A stretch of DNA of 64,000 bases. Origin: a virus. Taxonomy: Duplodnaviria > Heunggongvirae > Uroviricota > Caudoviricetes. Shown one piece after another: positions 3,291 through 33,046 of the stretch. The position numbers were made by a program, and so were the translations under genes. The stretch is taken from the IMG/VR virus record IMGVR_UViG_2877948078_000003. One strand, written 5' to 3'. The notes under the pieces were generated by a model that ran no database searches, was not told where the DNA came from, and was given only the letters and a program-made list of their open reading frames with translations. Within the stretch, counting starts at the first letter, position 1, and every line of letters starts with the position of its first letter.

Positions 3291-3302
3291 ACCTTTCCAC
3301 CA

Positions 3303-3336
3303 ATAAAAAAGCCCGCAGCAGTAATGCCACGGGCTT
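3303..3336 (-). terminator. Intrinsic terminator between lom and stf
   Basis: Minus-strand hairpin AGCCCG..CGGGCT followed by TTTTTTATTGG. Confidence 0.45.
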
Positions 3337-3440
3337 CAGGACAGTGTAACTTTACGTTTCCTCAGACGCAGTTCACCCCATAAGGTGGATGAACATGCTC
3401 ATTATACCAATATTTACAGAAGATAAAGCTGTATCTGCCG

Positions 3441-4064: not shown

Positions 4065-4132
4065 GATTACCTCTTTGTTTTCAGTCAATAAAAAAGGCAC
4101 CACTTCGGGTGCCCGTCCGGGTTAATAAACCG

Positions 4133-7100
4133 TCAGCTGATACTGATACCTGATGCCCCCTTTTTCATCACAAGAACCTGTACATCACTGGCAAACGTAT
4201 CCGGCGGAATATTTCCCGAATGCCGTGTGGACGTGACAGTGAATGTCAGGGTTACGTGTCCACCTCCCGCACGCATATCCACAATTCGGGCGAAAACCTG
4301 AGGTGCATCATTCGCCACGCCGTCATAAATCACTGCACCGTTCATCAGCACCTTCAGATAACACATCGAATATGTTGTTCTGCCGCTGTCGGTACGCCTG
4401 CTTCCGCGAAATGTCAGCGGAAGTACCACTATCTGGCGGTCAAACGGGTGATCATCATACACAGTGAACGTGCGCGTTCCGGAAGGCCAGTTCACACTGC
4501 CCTCATTCTGACGCGGGAAAGCGCCACTCCCGCCCTTGATAAGATCCCCGATGATGTTTCCCGCTTTCAGTGTGCCATTTATCGTGCAGTTCTCCGCTAT
4601 CACGACATTATTCAGCGTGCCCGAGTTAGCACTGATATGTCCGCTGATATCCGCATTGCGGGCCGTCAGCCTGCCCTCCGGCGTCAGGGAGAACGTCGGG
4701 GGATTGCCGGATGACGTGATACTCACCGCAAACAGTCGCTTCAGGAACACGTCGTTCATGAACAGCTGATTCCCCTGTGCCACAAACAGCGGCGTGGTGT
4801 TGCCGTTCTCCGGGGTAATCATCGCGATACGGTCCGCCTGCAGCAGAATATTGCTCAGCGTCTGGCCATCAGCATCCTCAATCCCCGCACCAATACCGGC
4901 AACATACGGAATGCCGTTTTTCGTTTTCTGCACCTTCAGCATGTACAGCGCTGCCAGCTCATCATTCGTGTCTGACTGGACCTGCTGTATCTGCTGTATG
5001 GTGGCGCTCTGGTCTTCCAGCTTTTTATCCGTGGTCGAGGTGATTTCACTCCCTTTGTCATCCACGTACTGGCGGACCTGCGCTATCTGCCTGGCATTTT
5101 CCTCCGTGCTCTGGCTGACTGTCTGTGTGATTTCACTGCTCACCCGGTCCACCTGCTGACTCACCTGCGCGATGGCCAGCGTCTGGTCCTCATTCTTTTT
5201 CGCAACCAGCTGCGTGAGGCTGTTTTCTGCCTCCCCGATTTTTCGGGTCACTTCCGCAACATCCGTCTCCAGCCGCTGGCGGATGTCTTCTTCCAGTTGC
5301 GTGACCTCAGTACGCAGGGCTGACGCATCAATACGCTCTTTCAGTGCCTTCCCCAGCAGCGCCTCATCTATCAGCCCACGGAAAATTTCCAGATACCCTT
5401 CACCATCATTGCTGGCCTGCCCGCTGGCCTCCACAAACGCAGATTTCCCCACCAGGTTGACGCTGCGCACATAAAACCAGAAATCCGTCCCCGGCCTGAT
5501 GTGCGGGCCGGAGACGCTCCACTGGCTGCCGGTACCCAGATAACGGGCTGAGGTTTCCACCTGTGCCGTGTCCGTGATGCGTTTTTCTGAGAACCAGAAT
5601 TCATACTGTACCGTCGGGTCATACACCGCAGGATGCGGGACCACCGTTATCTGAAAATAGCCCGGCGTCAGTTCAATGCTGGCCGGTGCCGCCGGTGCAT
5701 TAATCCGGAATGTGGTGGTGGCAGGTTCGCCCTGCTGGCCGTAGCTGTTTATCGCCCTGACCGTCAGGGTGTATTCCCCGAGCGGCAGGCCACTGAAACG
5801 GTGCTCCGTGTCCGCCGTGATGGCGCTGGTCACCAGGCGGCTGTTCTCACCACTGCCACTGGTCAGGCGCAGACTGAAGCGCACGCCCTTCACCACCCGC
5901 GGCGTGTCCCATTTCGCCAGCGCCAGATACTGGCCGTCTGAGGCGCTCACCTCCACCGTGAGGTGCTGCACCGCCGGCGGGATGACGCTGTTCAGTGAAC
6001 CGGAGAGCGGCTCAAAGGTGGCCCCGTTATCCACGATGGCTTCTTTTTCCGGTACGTGCTGCACTGCCGTGATGGCAAAGGTGCCGTCCGTGTTTTCCCG
6101 GATGGAAACACAGCGGAACAGGCGACGACGCAGTGACGGCAGGGAGAGTCCCCACACACCGTATGTCGCCACGCCATCCGGCAGGGCGCTGACCTGTATC
6201 CGGTCCGGGGCCAGTTGTGCAGTGATGTCCACGCGCACCGGCTTACCGCTGCCGTTAATCAGGTTCACCGTCGATGTCCCTGTCTCCGGCATGGTCACCT
6301 CACGGTCCAGCGTCAGTGTGCGGCTGGCGGCATCAATGGACAGGATGCGTCCGCCGGTCAGGGTCCCGGCGTAGTCGTTATCACAGATTTCAATGATGTC
6401 ACCGGGCGTATGCCGCAGCCCCTGTGACCCGAGCGTGAAATCCACCGTCTGCGTTTCCAGCAGTTCTGTCTTTATCACCCACAGTCCGGCACGGTGGGCC
6501 TGACCGCGGCTGGTACAGCCAAACGCGTCCATCTTCAGCAGGTTGCGCCCGTAGCGCAGGATGGCGTCCGGGTCTTCCACCAGTTCCGTGGAAGTCTGCC
6601 AGCCGTTCTGCGGGTCGGTGTAATTCACCTCCACCGCCGTGTGCCGGTCCTTCAGGGCACTGAAGCTGTAGCGGAACCCCACGCCGTTATCATCCACCAC
6701 CACATCGCTGTTGGTGTACGGCCACACCACATCCGACGGGCGGTCCTGAACGAACGTCAGCGTCTGGCCGTTCCATACCGGCATACAGCGCATCGCCGAG
6801 CAGAAATCCCCCAGGACATCCCAGACCTTACGCTGCTGTGACAGGTACGCATTGAAAGTCATCCGCGGCTCTGTGCCCCCGAAACCATCCGGGACCGTCT
6901 GGTCACAGTACTGCCCGATGGCATACAGTGCCCACTTGTCCACATCCGCCGCCCCCAGGCGTTTTCCCATCCCGTAGCGCGGGTGGGTCAGCATGTCCCA
7001 CAGGCACCAGGCCGGGTTATTGCTGTATGCCGGTTTCAGACTCCCGTCCCAGATACCGCTGTAGGTGCGTTTTTCCGGGTCATAGTTTGACGGCACCTGA

Positions 7101-7828
7101 ATGATGCGGCCGCGGATATGGTAGTTCACCACCATCTGCTGGCCACCGAACTGCTCCGCATCCACCTGCAGCCCCACAATGGCCGTGTTCGGGTAGCACT
7201 GTTTCACATCGATGATTTCGGTGTATGACGACCACAGCGTTCTGTTCTGCAGCTGGTCCGTGGTACTGTCCGCCGTCACCCTGACCACCCGGATGTTAAA
7301 GGGGCGCTCAGGGAGATTATTCAGAATCACCGACGTCAGGTACTGCGAGGTGGTCTTGCCGTTAATGGTGACATCCTTCTCCGTCACCCAGTTACCGTTA
7401 CGCTCAAGCTGAATCAGCAGGCGGACAGAAGAGGGATTACGGTCACCCTTTGAGGTGGTCTCCACCAGTGACTGCACCCCGAAGGTGACCCGCAGACGGT
7501 CAATGTTCGCTGACGTGATGGTGCGCGTCACCGGCTTTGCCTTCGTCACCTCCACACCCAGTGCGGTTTCCGCCCCGGAGGACTCAAAGCCTTCCGGCGG
7601 TGTCTGCTCCTGCTCCCCGGCACGCCAGACGGCGGTCACACCGTGTATCACGGGATTACCGTCCGTGTCCGTCAGCGGGGTTTTGTTCACCAGAATACTC
7701 TGCAGTCCCTTCACCGGGCCTTCCACCGGTCCCTCACCGATGGCATCAATCACGCTCATCATCTGCGTGGATTTGAGATTGTCCTTCGCCTCACGCGGTG
7801 TGTGCCCCTTGCCGCCCCCTTTACCCAC
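4133..7828 (-). CDS. J: Host specificity protein J (central tail fibre)
   Basis: Near-colinear with lambda gpJ from [20 protein letters not shown] to the C-terminus; start reassigned to GTG 7828 behind a GGAGAGGGGG SD; the track start at 7879 is a TTG extension. Confidence 0.95.
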
Positions 7829-7870
7829 TCTGTCCCCCTCTCCTGTCTGATGTCTGAATCTGTTTATGCC

Positions 7871-7900
7871 CAAAAACAACAGGCACCCCGGAGGGTGCCT
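7871..7900 (-). terminator. Terminator-like hairpin just upstream of J on the coding strand
   Basis: Perfect 8-bp stem AGGCACCC/GGGTGCCT with 4-nt loop, followed on the minus strand by GTTGTTTTTGGG. Confidence 0.4.
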
Positions 7901-8031
7901 GTGTCATGACGGAATAAAATTTCTGAAATTCTTCACATTTCCGGCAATTGCCTGTAGCCGTAATAATGACGCTGCGTTACATTTTTGATGCCTGAAAAAT
8001 AACTCCATAACGTTAATCTTCATCGTTCTCT

Positions 8032-8065
8032 CCCGCAGCTCCGCTGATTCTGCGGGATTTTTTTA
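8032..8065 (+). terminator. Plus-strand intrinsic terminator hairpin, repeat unit 1
   Basis: CCCGCAG-CTCCGCTGATT-CTGCGGG followed by ATTTTTTT. Confidence 0.45.
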
Positions 8066-8273
8066 TCCCTTAAACCCGGCACGATGTTATCTGTCTTCTT
8101 CCACAGATACCCGCCTGGCTTCCGCTCCCCCGCTACCGGATAAAAAGTCTGAATTTATTCACATTTCTGCAAATTACCTGTAGCCACAATAATGACGCTG
8201 CGTTACATTTTTTGCGGGTAAATAAAAATAAAACGCCAACAGGTTAGTCAACATCGTTCTCTTCCCGCAGCAC

Positions 8274-8305
8274 GGAGTACTGCGGGATTTTTTTATCCCC
8301 TGAAC
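8274..8305 (+). terminator. Plus-strand intrinsic terminator hairpin, repeat unit 2
   Basis: CCCGCAG-CACGGAGTA-CTGCGGG followed by ATTTTTTT. Confidence 0.45.
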
Positions 8306-8482
8306 CCGGCATGATGCCTTCTGTCCTCTGCCACCGATATCCGGCCCCTCCCTTCCCGTGAATAAAAATTCTGAGTTTATTCACATTTCCGCACACTGAC
8401 TGTAGTGCTCATAATCACGCTGCGTTACAGTTCATCTGCCAGAATAATGAAAAATTCCTTAAAGTTAATCTTCGTATCTCTT

Positions 8483-8515
8483 CCCGCAGGCGCCGAACAC
8501 TGCGGGATTTTTTTT
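8483..8515 (+). terminator. Plus-strand intrinsic terminator hairpin, repeat unit 3, abutting the I stop codon
   Basis: CCCGCAG-GCGCCGAACA-CTGCGGG followed by T8; the I stop (TGA, minus) overlaps the last T. Confidence 0.45.
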
Positions 8516-9195
8516 CATCCCCGCCCGATAACCACCACTTTCCCGTCACCGCCCTCATCACGGGTGCTGATGTCCTGGGATATCCGTCGTGAACCAACCA
8601 GCATTTCACCGTAAGGCACCGGCATCGGATTCCCCTGAGCAATCATGTTGTCCAGTGACGAAAAATACGTGTTCTGTTTACCGTTATCCGTACTTTTGTA
8701 TTCCGGCGTCTTTGCCTTCGGGGCCAGCATCTGGGCCACACCACCCAGTATCATGCTGGCACCCAGTGAGAACAGCATCGTGGTGGCAGTCAGCCCTCCG
8801 GCACTCAGGGCTGCGCCCCACAACGCCATCGTTGCACCGGCGGTGAAGAAAGAGCCCACGATGGCTGCAGCCCCCAGCACCACCTGAAAAACACCATTTC
8901 CCCCGGCCCCTGCCAGCCTCGGTACAATATGAATCACGGCCCTCCCGCTCAGCGGTTCATGAAGACGGGCATACACCGCCTCCGGCGCGGTATCCTCACC
9001 GGCAATACGTATCTGATACCAGCCTTCGTTCATCTGACAGCGGAATCCCGGCACCTGCAGCGACAGGGCACGGATGGCCTCCGCTGCCGTGTTCACATAC
9101 AGACTGATGCGGCGACCAAATCGTTGTAAATCCCCGTGAAGGCAGATGCGGACCAGTGGCGGTGACGCCAGACAGAATGCGTTCGTCGTTGCCAT
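8515..9195 (-). CDS. I: Tail assembly protein I
   Basis: Similar to lambda gpI (ICLHGDLQRFGRRI, NGKQNTYFSSLDNM). Confidence 0.9.
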   Translation of the reverse strand: MATTNAFCLASPPLVRICLHGDLQRFGRRISLYVNTAAEAIRALSLQVPGFRCQMNEGWYQIRIAGEDTAPEAVYARLHEPLSGRAVIHIVPRLAGAGGNGVFQVVLGAAAIVGSFFTAGATMALWGAALSAGGLTATTMLFSLGASMILGGVAQMLAPKAKTPEYKSTDNGKQNTYFSSLDNMIAQGNPMPVPYGEMLVGSRRISQDISTRDEGGDGKVVVIGRG

Positions 9196-14317: not shown

Positions 14318-15067
14318 TCAGCCTGCAGCGCCATCCGTGACGGTGATCTCCGCCACCGCCGCAAACTCACCATTGCCAGTGACAACAGGGATCTGCGCTT
14401 TACCGGCCGCAACACCTTTCACCGTGATCGTGTTCCCTTTCACGGTAATGGTCGCAAAATTCTGATTCGCCGACGTGGCGCGGAAGGTTTTATCCGTCGC
14501 CCCTTCCGGCTGAACAGCCACGGTCAGGGTGATATTCTGACCTTTTGCCACATTGCCCGTTGGTGGCGTCACGGTAATACCGGTGACCGGTGTGATGTCC
14601 CCCTGATCTTCCGCCAGCGACGGACGACCGATATTGGTGATTTTTACCGTACGGGTGATCACCTCTTTGGCGGTCACCGCTTTACCAATGGCGCTCACCC
14701 AGCCACGAAACACATCCACCGTGCCATTCGGGAAACGGATTTTGTAGGCCCGGCTCTCACTGCTGTCAAACCAGGCAATCAAATCGCGCTGCCCTTTCTC
14801 GCCCGGCTTCCAGGCCAGCGTAAAACTGGTGTCACCGGCAGATTTCTGCCCCTGCCCGGTGGATACCCAGTCAGCATCCTCATCATCCAGATAGTTATCA
14901 TCGTAGGATTCTGCCGTCATCTCGCCGGGGGTCAGATCTTTTATTTTTGCCAGGCGCGTCCACTCATCGTCTGACAACGGGTTTGCATAAGCATCACCCT
15001 TGCCGGTGTAAACCCACAGTGTGGTACCGGCACCTTTTACCGGCTCCAGGGGATTTGGTGTTGCCAT
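14318..15067 (-). CDS. V: Major tail protein V with C-terminal Ig-like domain
   Basis: Matches lambda gpV; C-terminal Big_2-like segment. Confidence 0.9.
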
Positions 15068-29362: not shown

Positions 29363-29477
29363 AAAATAGCCAAAACACCAAAAATACCTTGATTTGGTAT
29401 TTTTAGTGATGCATTATTTACCCGTGCAGATATCCGCACGAATATCCGCGCGGGTAACTTTTTAGAATAGAGGAAGT
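29363..29477. promoter_or_regulatory. Early control region between c and ner (divergent promoters and operators)
   Basis: Inverted repeat AAAAATACC-N7-GGTATTTTT and direct repeat ATATCCGC x2 in a 115-bp divergent intergenic region. Confidence 0.5.
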
Positions 29478-29726
29478 ATGAGTAGAAGAGAAGTTTCAGA
29501 TCACGATTGGCCGCCTGAAATCATCAAGGCGCGCTTACACATGGCTGGCTTATCACTGCGCTCTTTATCTTTAAAGGCTGGTTACAGCAGGGATTCGCTG
29601 AAAAGCGTATTACGTACTCCTTGCCGACCGTATCAGCAAATAATTGCTGATGCTCTTGGGGTATCGCCTGAAGAAATCTGGCCCAGTAGATACCAGGTTA
29701 AGAGCTATATGAGAAAGGCGTCATGA
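29478..29726 (+). CDS. ner: Ner-like DNA-binding regulator
   Basis: 82 aa; conserved QQIIADALGV..PEEIWPSRY C-terminal motif of the Ner/Nlp family. Confidence 0.8.
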   Translation: MSRREVSDHDWPPEIIKARLHMAGLSLRSLSLKAGYSRDSLKSVLRTPCRPYQQIIADALGVSPEEIWPSRYQVKSYMRKAS

Positions 29727-29727
29727 T

Positions 29728-31818
29728 ATGTATGTCATTGCAAAAGAACTGATTGGCGCGCCCGGAATGCCTGCTACAACAAAAGGTATTCGCCAGGCAT
29801 TACAACGTTACGTACAAGGGAAAAGCTGTTGTTCCCGTCGTCGCTCAGGCTCTAAAGCAACTGAATACAGCATCGACTGTTTACCTGAAGTGACGCAGCA
29901 GGCATTACGTGAACGTTATGCCCTGCAACTGATGACGCAAAAAGCCGATGAATCACCGGCTCCGGTGGTGACAAAGGCCAGACGCTCATCTGACGTGGTT
30001 GATGCGGTGGAGGCATATCGCGGATCACCACAACTGATGGTCGAACGCCTCAATGCCCTGACTGAAAACCAGCGCCAGGTGGCTGATGCACGAATCGCGA
30101 TCGTCAGCGAAGTGATGAAAGTCGCGCAACAACCCGGTTTCAGCTGCGCGAAGGCTATCCGGTTTATCGTTGACAACCTGGCACGTTCACAGCTGGACGA
30201 GCGCATTGTGGCAATGGTTGAGACGGCGAACGCCAAAAAGGGAAACAGCCGTGCGTTGAGTGAAATCACGCTGAAGCGATGGATTGCGGCCTTTAACAAG
30301 GCACAGAACGCCGCTGAACGCCTGCTTTTACTGGCACCGGGTAAACGCCAGGAAATAAAAGCCGAAGATATTAACTGGCTGCCCGAATTTCTGGCGCAGT
30401 ATCGCCAGTCAAACGGCCGACCAATGACCGAGGCTTACGAGGATTTTGTTGCTGAATGGCAGCACCGGCACGCTGATGAGCCTTATATGCTCGATATCAT
30501 GCCCTCTTATGACACCATTCGCCGCGCAATGAAGAAACTGCCGGAAGTGGTGAAACAAAAAGGCCGGGTGACAGGCAGTGAATACCGTCAGCTTGAGGGA
30601 TTCACGCGCCGCGACTGGTCCAGAATGCCGGTGAATTATGTCTGGATTGGTGACGGTCACGGCATGAAGATGAAATGCAGGCACCCGGTTCACGGGCGGC
30701 CATTTGCACCGGAAGTGACCTTTGTTATCGACGGTGGCACGCGCTTTGTGGTGGGCTGGAGCCTTGACCTGGCTGAAAATGTTTTCGCCGTAGCCGGTGC
30801 CATACAGCACGGTATTCGCCATCACGGCAAACCGTTTCTGTATTACTCGGATAACGGTTCGGGGGAAACCGCCGACATCCTGGATAAGGAGGTTGTGGGG
30901 ATCCTGCCGCGCCTGGGGATTAATCACCCGACAGGGATTGCCGGTAATCCGCAGGGGCGAGGCATTATCGAACGGCTTAACCGCACATTACCGATGCGCA
31001 TAGCCCGTAAATACCGCACCTATTTCGGGAAAGGTGCAGATCGCGAGACGTTACGCAAAACCAACCGCGATTTACGCTCGGCATTCACTGCCCTGCAACA
31101 GGACAAACGGCTGAACGCCCGGCAGCAGTCAGCGATGCGTGATTTACCGTCCTGGCCTGAACTGATTGATGCCATCCGTGATGGTGTCGAGTGGTACAAC
31201 AACCGGCCGCACAGCGGATTGCCGGTGAAACCGAACGGTAAGCATTACAGCCCGGCGGAATACAGGAAAAAACGCCTGGCAGAAGAGGACACGGAAATTG
31301 AATGGCTGTCCGATGTTGAGCTGCGGGATATGTTCCGGCCGATGGTGGAACGCCCGGTAAGACGCTGTGAAATACGCTGGCTGAATAATATTTACTACGC
31401 GCCCGAGCTGCGTGATGAGCATGGCCGTAAGGTGCTTATCAGCTATGACATTCATGATGCCGAACGAATTACCGTGCGTCGCCTGGATGGCAGCGTGATT
31501 TGCGAGGCGGTATGGGACGGCAATAAACGCGAAGCCTTCCCGGTCAGCGCGGAATACTACAAACAGCAGCAACGCCTTAAAGGCATGCGTAAACGCGCAG
31601 AGGAAAAAATCCGTGATGCCGAGGATGAGGTGGTCAACGTGCTGGAGCACAAGCCGCAAGAGCCCTGGCTGGAAAACATCTATCGCCCGGTAGGTAATAC
31701 GGTGGCCGTTCAGCAACCTGCCGTTGATGATGAGCCTGATGAAGAATACGAGCGTAATTTCCAGCGGGGATTGCAGTTGCTCGAAGCGAAATTAAAAGAA
31801 AATGACCCGCTGGCCTGA
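29728..31818 (+). CDS. A: Mu-type DDE transposase A
   Basis: 696 aa; position after ner; overall resemblance to MuA. Confidence 0.85.
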   Translation: MYVIAKELIGAPGMPATTKGIRQALQRYVQGKSCCSRRRSGSKATEYSIDCLPEVTQQALRERYALQLMTQKADESPAPVVTKARRSSDVVDAVEAYRGSPQLMVERLNALTENQRQVADARIAIVSEVMKVAQQPGFSCAKAIRFIVDNLARSQLDERIVAMVETANAKKGNSRALSEITLKRWIAAFNKAQNAAERLLLLAPGKRQEIKAEDINWLPEFLAQYRQSNGRPMTEAYEDFVAEWQHRHADEPYMLDIMPSYDTIRRAMKKLPEVVKQKGRVTGSEYRQLEGFTRRDWSRMPVNYVWIGDGHGMKMKCRHPVHGRPFAPEVTFVIDGGTRFVVGWSLDLAENVFAVAGAIQHGIRHHGKPFLYYSDNGSGETADILDKEVVGILPRLGINHPTGIAGNPQGRGIIERLNRTLPMRIARKYRTYFGKGADRETLRKTNRDLRSAFTALQQDKRLNARQQSAMRDLPSWPELIDAIRDGVEWYNNRPHSGLPVKPNGKHYSPAEYRKKRLAEEDTEIEWLSDVELRDMFRPMVERPVRRCEIRWLNNIYYAPELRDEHGRKVLISYDIHDAERITVRRLDGSVICEAVWDGNKREAFPVSAEYYKQQQRLKGMRKRAEEKIRDAEDEVVNVLEHKPQEPWLENIYRPVGNTVAVQQPAVDDEPDEEYERNFQRGLQLLEAKLKENDPLA

Positions 31819-31889
31819 AATAAAAAAATAACCCGAGCGGCGACTCAGGTTATTTGATTAAACAAGGTATCAAATGAGAGGTTAATAAT

Positions 31890-32822
31890 ATGACTGATAT
31901 TAACGATGTAATCAAGACCATTGATGAACTTATTGATGGCGGCGTACTGACGCAGTATGCCATCGCCAGAGAGGCGGGAATTTCCGACGGCACATTATCG
32001 GCTTTCCGTAAGGGAAAATATAAAGGCGATAACGCTGCTGTGGCTGCTTCCCTGCGCTCCTGGTATGAGAACTGGAATAAACAAAGCGCACTGCCGGAAC
32101 CGCCGCAGTTTGTGGAAACGCAGACAGTCCAGGAGCTGCGCGCACTGTTTCAGGCGGTTCGTCTGATGGGCTGTATTAACGTTATTGTGGGCGTACCGGG
32201 TGTGGGTAAAACGGCCACCGCCCGTAATTACTGCCAGGAGCAACCAAACACCTGGATGATCACCCTGTCTCCCGCGCATTCCAGCGTCACGGAGTGTCTG
32301 CTGGAGCTGGCCGATGCGCTGGGGATTGATTACACCCGCGCGAACAAAGGGGCATTATCCCGCGCCATCCGCCGTCGCCTGATGGGAACGCGCGGACTGG
32401 TGATTGTGGATGAGGCGGATCATCTTGGTATTGACGGTCTGGAGCAACTCCGGGCAATTCAGGACGCCACGGGGATCGGGATGGTGCTTATTGGTAACCC
32501 GCGCGGACTGTTTAAAGGTGGACGCCGCGCCTTTGATGATTTATCGCGCCTGTTCAGCCGTCTTGCCCGTACAAAACAACTTCGCAGGGCTAAAAAGGCG
32601 GATGTGCTGGCTATTGCCAGGGCATGGGGTATCAGTGGTGAGGCCGAGCTGGCTGTCATGCAGGCTATTGCTGAAAAACCGGGAGCATTACGTGTTCTGA
32701 CACATACGCTTAACCAGGCGTGGCTCACAGCCAGCGGTGAAGGCGCGGCGCTGACAGAAAAACATATTAATGCGGCCTTTAAAGAGGTTTACACCAACCC
32801 TGAATTACTCTCGCAGGTGTGA
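31890..32822 (+). CDS. B: Mu B-like AAA+ ATPase (transposition target DNA activator)
   Basis: Walker A GVPGVGKT, Walker B VIVDEADH; directly after the transposase. Confidence 0.85.
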   Translation: MTDINDVIKTIDELIDGGVLTQYAIAREAGISDGTLSAFRKGKYKGDNAAVAASLRSWYENWNKQSALPEPPQFVETQTVQELRALFQAVRLMGCINVIVGVPGVGKTATARNYCQEQPNTWMITLSPAHSSVTECLLELADALGIDYTRANKGALSRAIRRRLMGTRGLVIVDEADHLGIDGLEQLRAIQDATGIGMVLIGNPRGLFKGGRRAFDDLSRLFSRLARTKQLRRAKKADVLAIARAWGISGEAELAVMQAIAEKPGALRVLTHTLNQAWLTASGEGAALTEKHINAAFKEVYTNPELLSQV

Positions 32823-32824
32823 TT

Positions 32825-33046
32825 ATGGCTGTATTTAATATTCCTGATATTTACGGACGCTTTTACCTGGTGAATTTCGATAACGTCAAAGCAGTCTCCA
32901 TGTCTGACAGTGAAGAATGTGGCGATTTACTCTTTGAATTTAATGATCGCACCCGAATGGCAATATCGGCAGGACTTGATCGTGAAGGTGCGAAAGAAGC
33001 TTACAGCAATATTTGTCGCTTTATCGGTGCAAGACGGGTTAGTTAA
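32825..33046 (+). CDS. Hypothetical small protein in the Mu kil position
   Basis: ATG overlaps the B stop; no recognisable motif. Confidence 0.45.
   Translation: MAVFNIPDIYGRFYLVNFDNVKAVSMSDSEECGDLLFEFNDRTRMAISAGLDREGAKEAYSNICRFIGARRVS

Follow-up and report, generated by a model that had tools for sequence, protein, structure and literature searches.

The hairpin that lies between the tail genes I and J of this lambdoid prophage is probably the Stx/EHEC-prophage version of a terminator that is conserved in position at the I-J boundary, and that would be read through by Q-modified RNA polymerase in lytic growth and be insulating in lysogens. This reading draws on the observed structure, conservation and position of the hairpin and on its analogues in other phages. 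It would remove the apparent paradox of a terminator placed ahead of an essential, co-transcribed gene, and it would make the I-J gap a conserved punctuation point and insertion slot in the lambda-like tail modules of temperate as well as virulent phages. On its own the hairpin matters little; a terminator at the I-J boundary has already been annotated in phage HK75.

Structure and setting of the hairpin

The window, i.e., the whole stretch of 64,000 nucleotides that was analysed, carries a lambdoid prophage with its late genes on the minus strand. The gene for the major capsid protein, E (17867-16839, Pfam), the tail assembly gene I (8515-9195, Pfam Lambda_tail_I), the gene for the tail tip or host specificity protein, J (4133-7828, Pfam GpJ domains), and the genes lom (4103-3441, Pfam) and stf (3290-1368, Pfam) are all on this strand. 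The GTG start codon of J (7828-7826) is in frame with the open reading frame 4133..7879, and the start at 7828 is supported by homology to lambda (19 protein letters). The J leader (7829..7868, minus strand) has a Shine-Dalgarno sequence, GGAG, at 7843-7840. It also contains a CAGACAT/GACATCA heptamer (7845-7858), which is found in one to three tandem copies in relatives, e.g., L004, L008 and L029, so that the distance from the terminator to the ribosome-binding site of J changes. The 781 bp around the hairpin are 100% identical in Escherichia coli STEC 2013C-3181 and SI-NP020. Related sequences are present at 2,795 places in 811 of the 5,426 complete E. coli genomes and also in 96 phage records, mostly those of Stx-converting phages. 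The hairpin is without annotation in the database records opened, while the kind of feature to which it belongs is already recognised.

A terminator scan placed the stem at 7902..7879 on the minus strand, reading ACAGGCACCC-TCCG-GGGTGCCTGT in DNA letters and ACAGGCACCC-UCCG-GGGUGCCUGU in the RNA, with 10 base pairs (seven of them G-C) and a loop of 4 nt. Directly 3' of the stem is a U-tract, UGUUUUUGGG (7869..7878, minus strand; TGTTTTTGGG in the DNA letters of the scan from 7878 to 7869), with 6 U within the first 8 nt (UGUUUUUG). The site is intergenic, between I and J, and the stem and the U-tract end 50 and 41 nt, respectively, upstream of the J GTG. The first-pass annotation had described a terminator-like hairpin on the coding strand between a repeat array and J, approximately 45 bp upstream of the J start, and both the place and the distance agree with our computation. 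The 8-bp stem that it gave (AGGCACCC/GGGTGCCT) is present as well, as the core of the longer 10-bp stem.

The features expected of an intrinsic terminator are a GC-rich stem of about 5-14 bp, a loop of 3-8 nt and a U-rich tract that begins 0-2 nt past the stem on the transcribed strand, and all of these were found. On the plus strand the sequence past the stem is TGTCATGACGG, without a U-tract; the letters examined for such a tract were TGTCATGA. The terminator shape is therefore unidirectional, in the sense of the tail genes. The predicted folding energy was -20.8 kcal/mol for the hairpin alone (z = -5.2) and -27.8 kcal/mol for the hairpin with its flanks (z = -5.0), and in neither case was it reached by any of 200 shuffled sequences. 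Within 20 kb, one single other terminator-like site equals the hairpin in quality. By its structure the hairpin is a Rho-independent (intrinsic) terminator signal, at which termination would be expected. Rfam searches of the whole window at the gathering threshold, and of 7700-8700 at E-values up to 10, returned nothing relevant. A palindrome, GTCATGAC, adjoins the hairpin; it was considered as a conserved element and rejected, relatives having GTCATGAT, GTGATGAT or GTCAGCAG in its place.

The neighbouring repeats and conservation of the hairpin

The interval of 0.65 kb between I and the hairpin is taken up by three tandem units of approximately 225 bp, each ending in a plus-strand terminator (CCCGCAG..CTGCGGG followed by T7-8). 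Unit 1 (7912..8064, plus strand, terminator with T7) is the only one that adjoins the hairpin; its promoter region includes a CRP-like site, TCTGA-N6-TCACA (7922-7937), and a -10 element, AATAAT (7962-7967), and its RNA would extend from roughly 7974/7987 to 8064. Unit 2 (8138..8294, plus strand) and unit 3 (8360..8515, plus strand) are preceded by spacers (8065-8137 and 8295-8359) that have no sense-strand terminator, and the stop codon of I overlaps the T-run of the third unit terminator on the opposite strand. The copies have diverged to about 76-79% identity and are antisense to the tail operon.

These units belong to the same family as PasB of the EPEC strain E2348/69 and EcOnc22-24 of the EHEC strain Sakai, with which they share the gap, the strand, a matching terminator and a matching probe sequence. 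The reverse complement of the PasB Northern probe (PMC8550237, Table S6) matches 8036-8058 with four mismatches. In prophage PP6, PasB is encoded in the gap from I (E2348C_1436) to J (E2348C_1437), antisense to the tail genes, and the same hairpin is found upstream of its promoter. In Sakai, the I-J gaps of the prophages Sp15, Sp14 and Sp11 contain the Hfq-bound RNAs EcOnc22, EcOnc23 and EcOnc24, respectively. Northern blotting gave a length of approximately 85 nt for EcOnc22, which is less stable when Hfq is absent (Tree 2014, PMC4104026, Table S2); for PasB and EcOnc22-24 together, the Hfq-bound RNA is about 83-85 nt. With the published coordinates the EcOnc22 Hfq peak would fall over the hairpin, and this assignment was rejected, as a shift of +135 nt puts the peak on the body of the sRNA. 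The shift, between NC_002695.1 and NC_002695.2, was calibrated with two landmarks of the Stx1 phage, the pR' start and tR', some 24 kb away from the I-J junction of Sp15, and is assumed to be valid there. The three Hfq peaks share one offset from J in Sp11, Sp14 and Sp15.

Comparison with these loci identifies the repeat array as a tandem triplication, as judged from sequence, of a validated Hfq-dependent prophage sRNA gene of the PasB/EcOnc22 family. The gene is present as a single copy in VT1-Sakai and in most relatives, while other contigs have two or three units; in some complete genomes the match to the 781-base query extends over about 1,000 bases, suggesting that a fourth unit exists there. 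In a 2026 survey of Pas RNAs the minimum distance between pasB copies was 28 kb (bioRxiv 10.64898/2026.05.13.724894), and tandem arrays thus appear to be undescribed. The tandem copies are a more interesting object than the hairpin itself. The EPEC study gives no EHEC homologue for PasB (PMC8550237); EcOnc22-24 of Sakai occupy the same place. A CRP-like TCTGA-N6-TCACA site precedes the -10 element in each unit (7922-7937, 8148-8163 and 8370-8385, plus strand) and is also found in EPEC and in every variant seen. In EPEC, PasB is reportedly more abundant when growth conditions are nonactivating than when they are activating (PMC8550237), a pattern that would fit activation by cAMP-CRP provided that the activating medium is the one rich in glucose. 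Two other prophage sRNAs were considered and set aside: svsR (PMC12803456) sits at the 3' end of cI, and HnrS/EcOnc10-12 (PMC13502914) are located elsewhere, in the Sakai prophages Sp9, Sp10 and Sp12.

The hairpin is a neighbour of the sRNA gene, and lies outside both the sRNA and the repeat unit, on the other strand and upstream of the sRNA promoter. One option offered in the first-pass annotation was an insulating element acquired together with the repeats. Such an arrival is not supported by the spacers of units 2 and 3, which are without a hairpin, nor by the unrelated terminators that occupy the same I-J position in phages having no sRNA gene. On this comparison the hairpin is best assigned to the I-J boundary and not to the repeat unit, and the PasB/EcOnc22-type sRNA genes, like other morons, would have been inserted between I and the terminator.

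Conservation was followed in 80 IMG/VR contigs in which the encoded J N-terminus is at least 93% identical. The 130 nt upstream of J exist as 35 variants in this sample; the hairpin and its U-tract are kept in about 70 of the 80 contigs, ahead of four different J leaders, and are missing from a group of ten contigs that carry sodC. Across 16 distinct sequences of the hairpin region, 98.7% of the stem cells are paired. One pair is doubly changed, from C-G to U-A, in three variants, and U.G intermediates occur; the loop varies (UCCG, UCAG, CGGUGA), and the U-tract reads TTGTTTTT, TCGTTTTT or TTCTTTT in every variant that bears the hairpin. The covariation score, based on one covarying pair, was reached by 27 of 500 shuffles, modest statistics that follow from the fact that most of the stem columns never vary. 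A scan of genome contigs with the J N-terminus gave nine loci, each of them either contaminating lambda or a Shigella prophage of lambda-like type.

In the sole open reading frame that spans the hairpin, from an ATG at 7907 to a TAA at 7821, the paired changes in the stem alter the amino acid (Pro to Ser, Val to Met), so that the constraint is on the RNA structure and not on a peptide. This frame of 28 codons overlaps the J start and could in principle encode a leader peptide whose translation is coupled to that of J; in four leader types it stays open from the ATG, which lies in GTCATGAC, as far as the J start or close to it. An open frame of 20-28 codons is, however, expected by chance in approximately one case out of three, no Shine-Dalgarno sequence precedes the ATG, and the ATG itself is absent in L018. 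With these properties and the nonsynonymous paired changes, a leader peptide at 7907-7821 is very improbable and was rejected.

Several relatives have a rearranged gap. In the sodC group (the L036 group, 10 IMG/VR loci, e.g., L036:780-1500) an antisense cassette with sodC, for a Cu,Zn superoxide dismutase, replaces the sRNA promoter and the hairpin, and the 3' end and terminator of the sRNA alone are left, adjoining I. No substitute terminator was found before J in these ten contigs. In L080 (500-749) an apparent antisense transposase-like reading frame, judged by eye, adjoins the sRNA promoter region on the side toward I, with an intact hairpin and J leader. In the 300 nt upstream of J of L030, L033 and L018, sRNA bodies and terminators of quite different sequence are attached to the same promoter-proximal region and hairpin, one of the divergent terminators being TCTCCCGTAATA..TATTACGGGAGA; the promoter/terminator frame is more conserved in these three than the sRNA itself.

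The close association with the sRNA promoter region raises another possible role, that of ending an unannotated short sense RNA, e.g., one divergent from this promoter region and overlapping the sRNA in antisense. A hairpin with a U-tail is typical of an sRNA 3' end, and the hairpin is always 65-90 nt from the sRNA promoter region, which is itself more conserved than the sRNA bodies. Nevertheless, no good sense-strand promoter was found: simple and PWM scans of the sense strand from I to the hairpin gave no convincing sigma-70 promoter. The Sakai data list no orphan Hfq peak of the minus strand here in Sp11, Sp14 or Sp15, and the EPEC RIL-seq tables examined, which hold gene-level counts only, contain no I-J intergenic feature; the tail genes are nearly silent in these supplements (baseMean 2-27). 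In addition, phages that lack an sRNA gene have analogous terminators. We consider a short sense RNA quite improbable.

Terminators at the I-J boundary of other phages

In lambda the I-J gap is 60 bp long and has no sRNA gene, yet it contains a hairpin that is terminator-like and unrelated in sequence, GAAACCGCC-UGCG-GGCGGUUUU with GUCAUUU directly after it. A hairpin of this kind occurs at the boundary in each of the 80 lambda-type contigs examined; it is the lambda sequence with loop changes only in 76, and it has a variant stem in the other four. In L104, L105, L113 and L115 (about 795-1131) an AT-rich, sense-oriented lipoprotein moron (111 aa, MNKTILFCTIIALTGC...) lies between I and the variant terminator. 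In HK75 (NC_016160) a "terminator" is annotated at 14460-14483 between the I-like and J-like genes, with five further annotated terminators in the late operon, six in all. Equivalent I-J hairpins are present in mEp213 and in Cronobacter phage phiES15. No paper discussing an I-J terminator in lambda was found in a literature search.

The hairpin of the window and those of HK75, lambda, mEp213 and phiES15 have no sequence similarity. What they share is the position, the strand and the anatomy: the stem is GC-rich, the tetraloop is of the TTCG/TCCG/TGCG type, and a T-run immediately precedes the ribosome-binding site of J. They differ in spacing: the hairpin described here is separated from I by 0.65 kb of antisense sRNA genes and is 41 nt from the J start, whereas the other four terminators are about 10-20 nt from J.

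A canonical I-J terminator is also found in the virulent T1-like phages IME18, herni and IME253, in Klebsiella phage Roth47 and in Serratia phage Serratianator. In the three T1-like phages it lies in an I-J gap of roughly 80 nt. A -10-like element between the terminator and J was seen in four of these five phages (IME18, herni, IME253 and Roth47), and suggests, from the sequence, that J heads its own transcription unit in T1-like phages. In the virulent T1-like I-J gaps L185, L186 and L188 a near-consensus -10 (TATAAT, TGTATAAT or TAGAAT) is located 10-20 nt past the terminator. The window differs in this respect. While J of the T1-like phages is probably a new transcription unit, no J promoter was found past the hairpin of the window by simple and PWM scans, and the expression of J should here depend on read-through by Q.

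No terminator was found at the I-J boundary of Providencia phage PSTCR8lys, in which I and J are 2 nt apart, or of phi80, in which the moron gene morF overlaps J. These two phages and the sodC-type relatives show that the I-J terminator is dispensable. Taken together, the comparisons indicate that a terminator at the I-J boundary is an old, common and dispensable feature of the lambda-like tail module. They also indicate that the I-J gap serves as a slot for morons, the terminator being on its J side, as illustrated by the lipoprotein moron and by the antisense sRNA genes. Morons bring their own promoter and terminator and can be expressed from repressed prophages (PMC3594210). In common with the terminators that bound morons of the HK97 gene 15 type (PMC3594210), the hairpin marks the edge of independently transcribed, acquired DNA in the tail operon. 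In contrast to that type, the insert of the window is transcribed from the opposite strand, and a terminator of its own lies at its I-side end; the hairpin is thus not the terminator of the moron's own transcript.

In the read-through late mRNA the hairpin might serve in stability or processing, either by holding back 3'-5' exonucleases or by forming a structured end once the mRNA has been cleaved, possibly by RNase III in a PasB:mRNA duplex; the I-proximal and J-proximal halves would then differ in half-life. The hairpin is a stable intercistronic structure that is conserved as RNA, the late mRNA immediately before it is fully complementary to the sRNAs, and virulent phages keep a hairpin at the I-J boundary as well, all of which would suit such a role. 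Against it stands the conservation of the U-tract together with the stem, as a U-tract is needed by a terminator and not by an exonuclease barrier. A role in mRNA stability or processing is accordingly regarded as rather unlikely.

Transcription through the boundary

Internal terminators are well known from the antiterminated late operons of phages. In lambdoid and Stx phages, late transcription starts at pR' and is carried out by Q-modified polymerase, for which terminators are no barrier (PMC7547250, PMC3851460), and a Term-seq dataset exists for Sakai (GSE143631, per PMC7547250). In sister strains with a 100% identical I-J region, a Q gene is present upstream of the late genes, before the lysis genes. 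Further strong sense-strand terminators are found in the late operon of the window: between J and lom (4085..4114, minus strand, listed by the terminator scan as 4114-4095; GGGCACC-CGAAGU-GGUGCCU followed by UUUUUAUUGA), between lom and stf (3298..3337, minus strand, listed as 3337-3308; a 13-bp stem followed by UUUAUUGGUG) and after the capsid gene (16831-16811, minus strand).

Our preferred reading, that of an I-J boundary terminator passed by Q, would then work as follows. In lytic growth the Q-modified polymerase from pR' would read through the hairpin and the other internal terminators, and J would still be made. In the lysogen, polymerase without the Q modification would stop at the hairpin and be kept out of J, lom and stf; the transcription stopped in this way could be stray, or could have begun in or near the inserted sRNA genes. 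The promoter scans of the sense strand from I to the hairpin, in which no convincing promoter appeared, count against this part of the reading. The label of insulating element, which the first-pass annotation had offered as one of two options, seems reasonable for such a function. As virulent T1-like phages also keep an I-J terminator, insulation of the prophage is not the whole or the original reason for its presence.

The other option, that a terminator at this place implies attenuation of J, does not follow. As Q-modified polymerase passes terminators, and as strong terminators are also found at J-lom, at lom-stf and after the capsid gene here, and at six places in the late operon of HK75, a terminator before J need not attenuate J. 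A weaker form of this option is that Q overrides the terminator only partly, by which J and the distal genes would be expressed at a lower level than the upstream tail genes. The terminator is strong and conserved, and the boundary separates transcription units in T1-like phages, in which J apparently has its own promoter, suggesting that the dosage of J is set separately. Late transcription is nevertheless antiterminated by Q (PMC7547250, PMC3851460), several equally strong terminators lie within the operon, some of them upstream of genes needed in large amounts, and the sodC-type relatives express J without the hairpin. No shared competing (antiterminator) helix was found in the 130 nt upstream of J of the hairpin-bearing variants, every minimum-energy fold of which keeps the hairpin. 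Partial attenuation is judged to be unlikely.

A more speculative view, to which we give little credence, is that the terminator is a partner of the antisense sRNA genes, with a PasB-type RNA altering the passage of polymerase or of the mRNA and so tying J to the regulation of the sRNA, which may be CRP-dependent; more broadly, the I-J terminator might be a docking point for morons, such as the sRNA genes, sodC, the lipoprotein gene and morF. If true, the expression of J, the host-range protein, would be tied to the sRNA's own regulation, and, in the broader form, the conserved I-J terminator would make the gap a preferred slot for morons.

Two minor observations concern the same operon. The stem after J (GGGCACC/GGUGCCU) resembles the core of the stem before J (GGCACCC/GGGUGCC), and J may thus be bracketed by similar hairpins, a resemblance that is possibly coincidental. 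Also, a Mu-like prophage (about 28600-33000 and beyond, plus strand) interrupts the SASA/NanS-type esterase gene that the lambdoid prophage carries between Q/pR' and the lysis genes. It encodes a repressor (28757-29362, minus strand), a MuA-like transposase (29728-31818, plus strand) and a MuB-like protein (31890-32822, plus strand); a canonical Mu end sequence was looked for at this prophage and not found. Of the esterase gene, the DUF6645 C-terminal part only is left (28044-28481), while in the sister strains with the identical I-J region the esterase gene is intact and Q is present. The late operon of the prophage described here has probably been cut off from its promoter.
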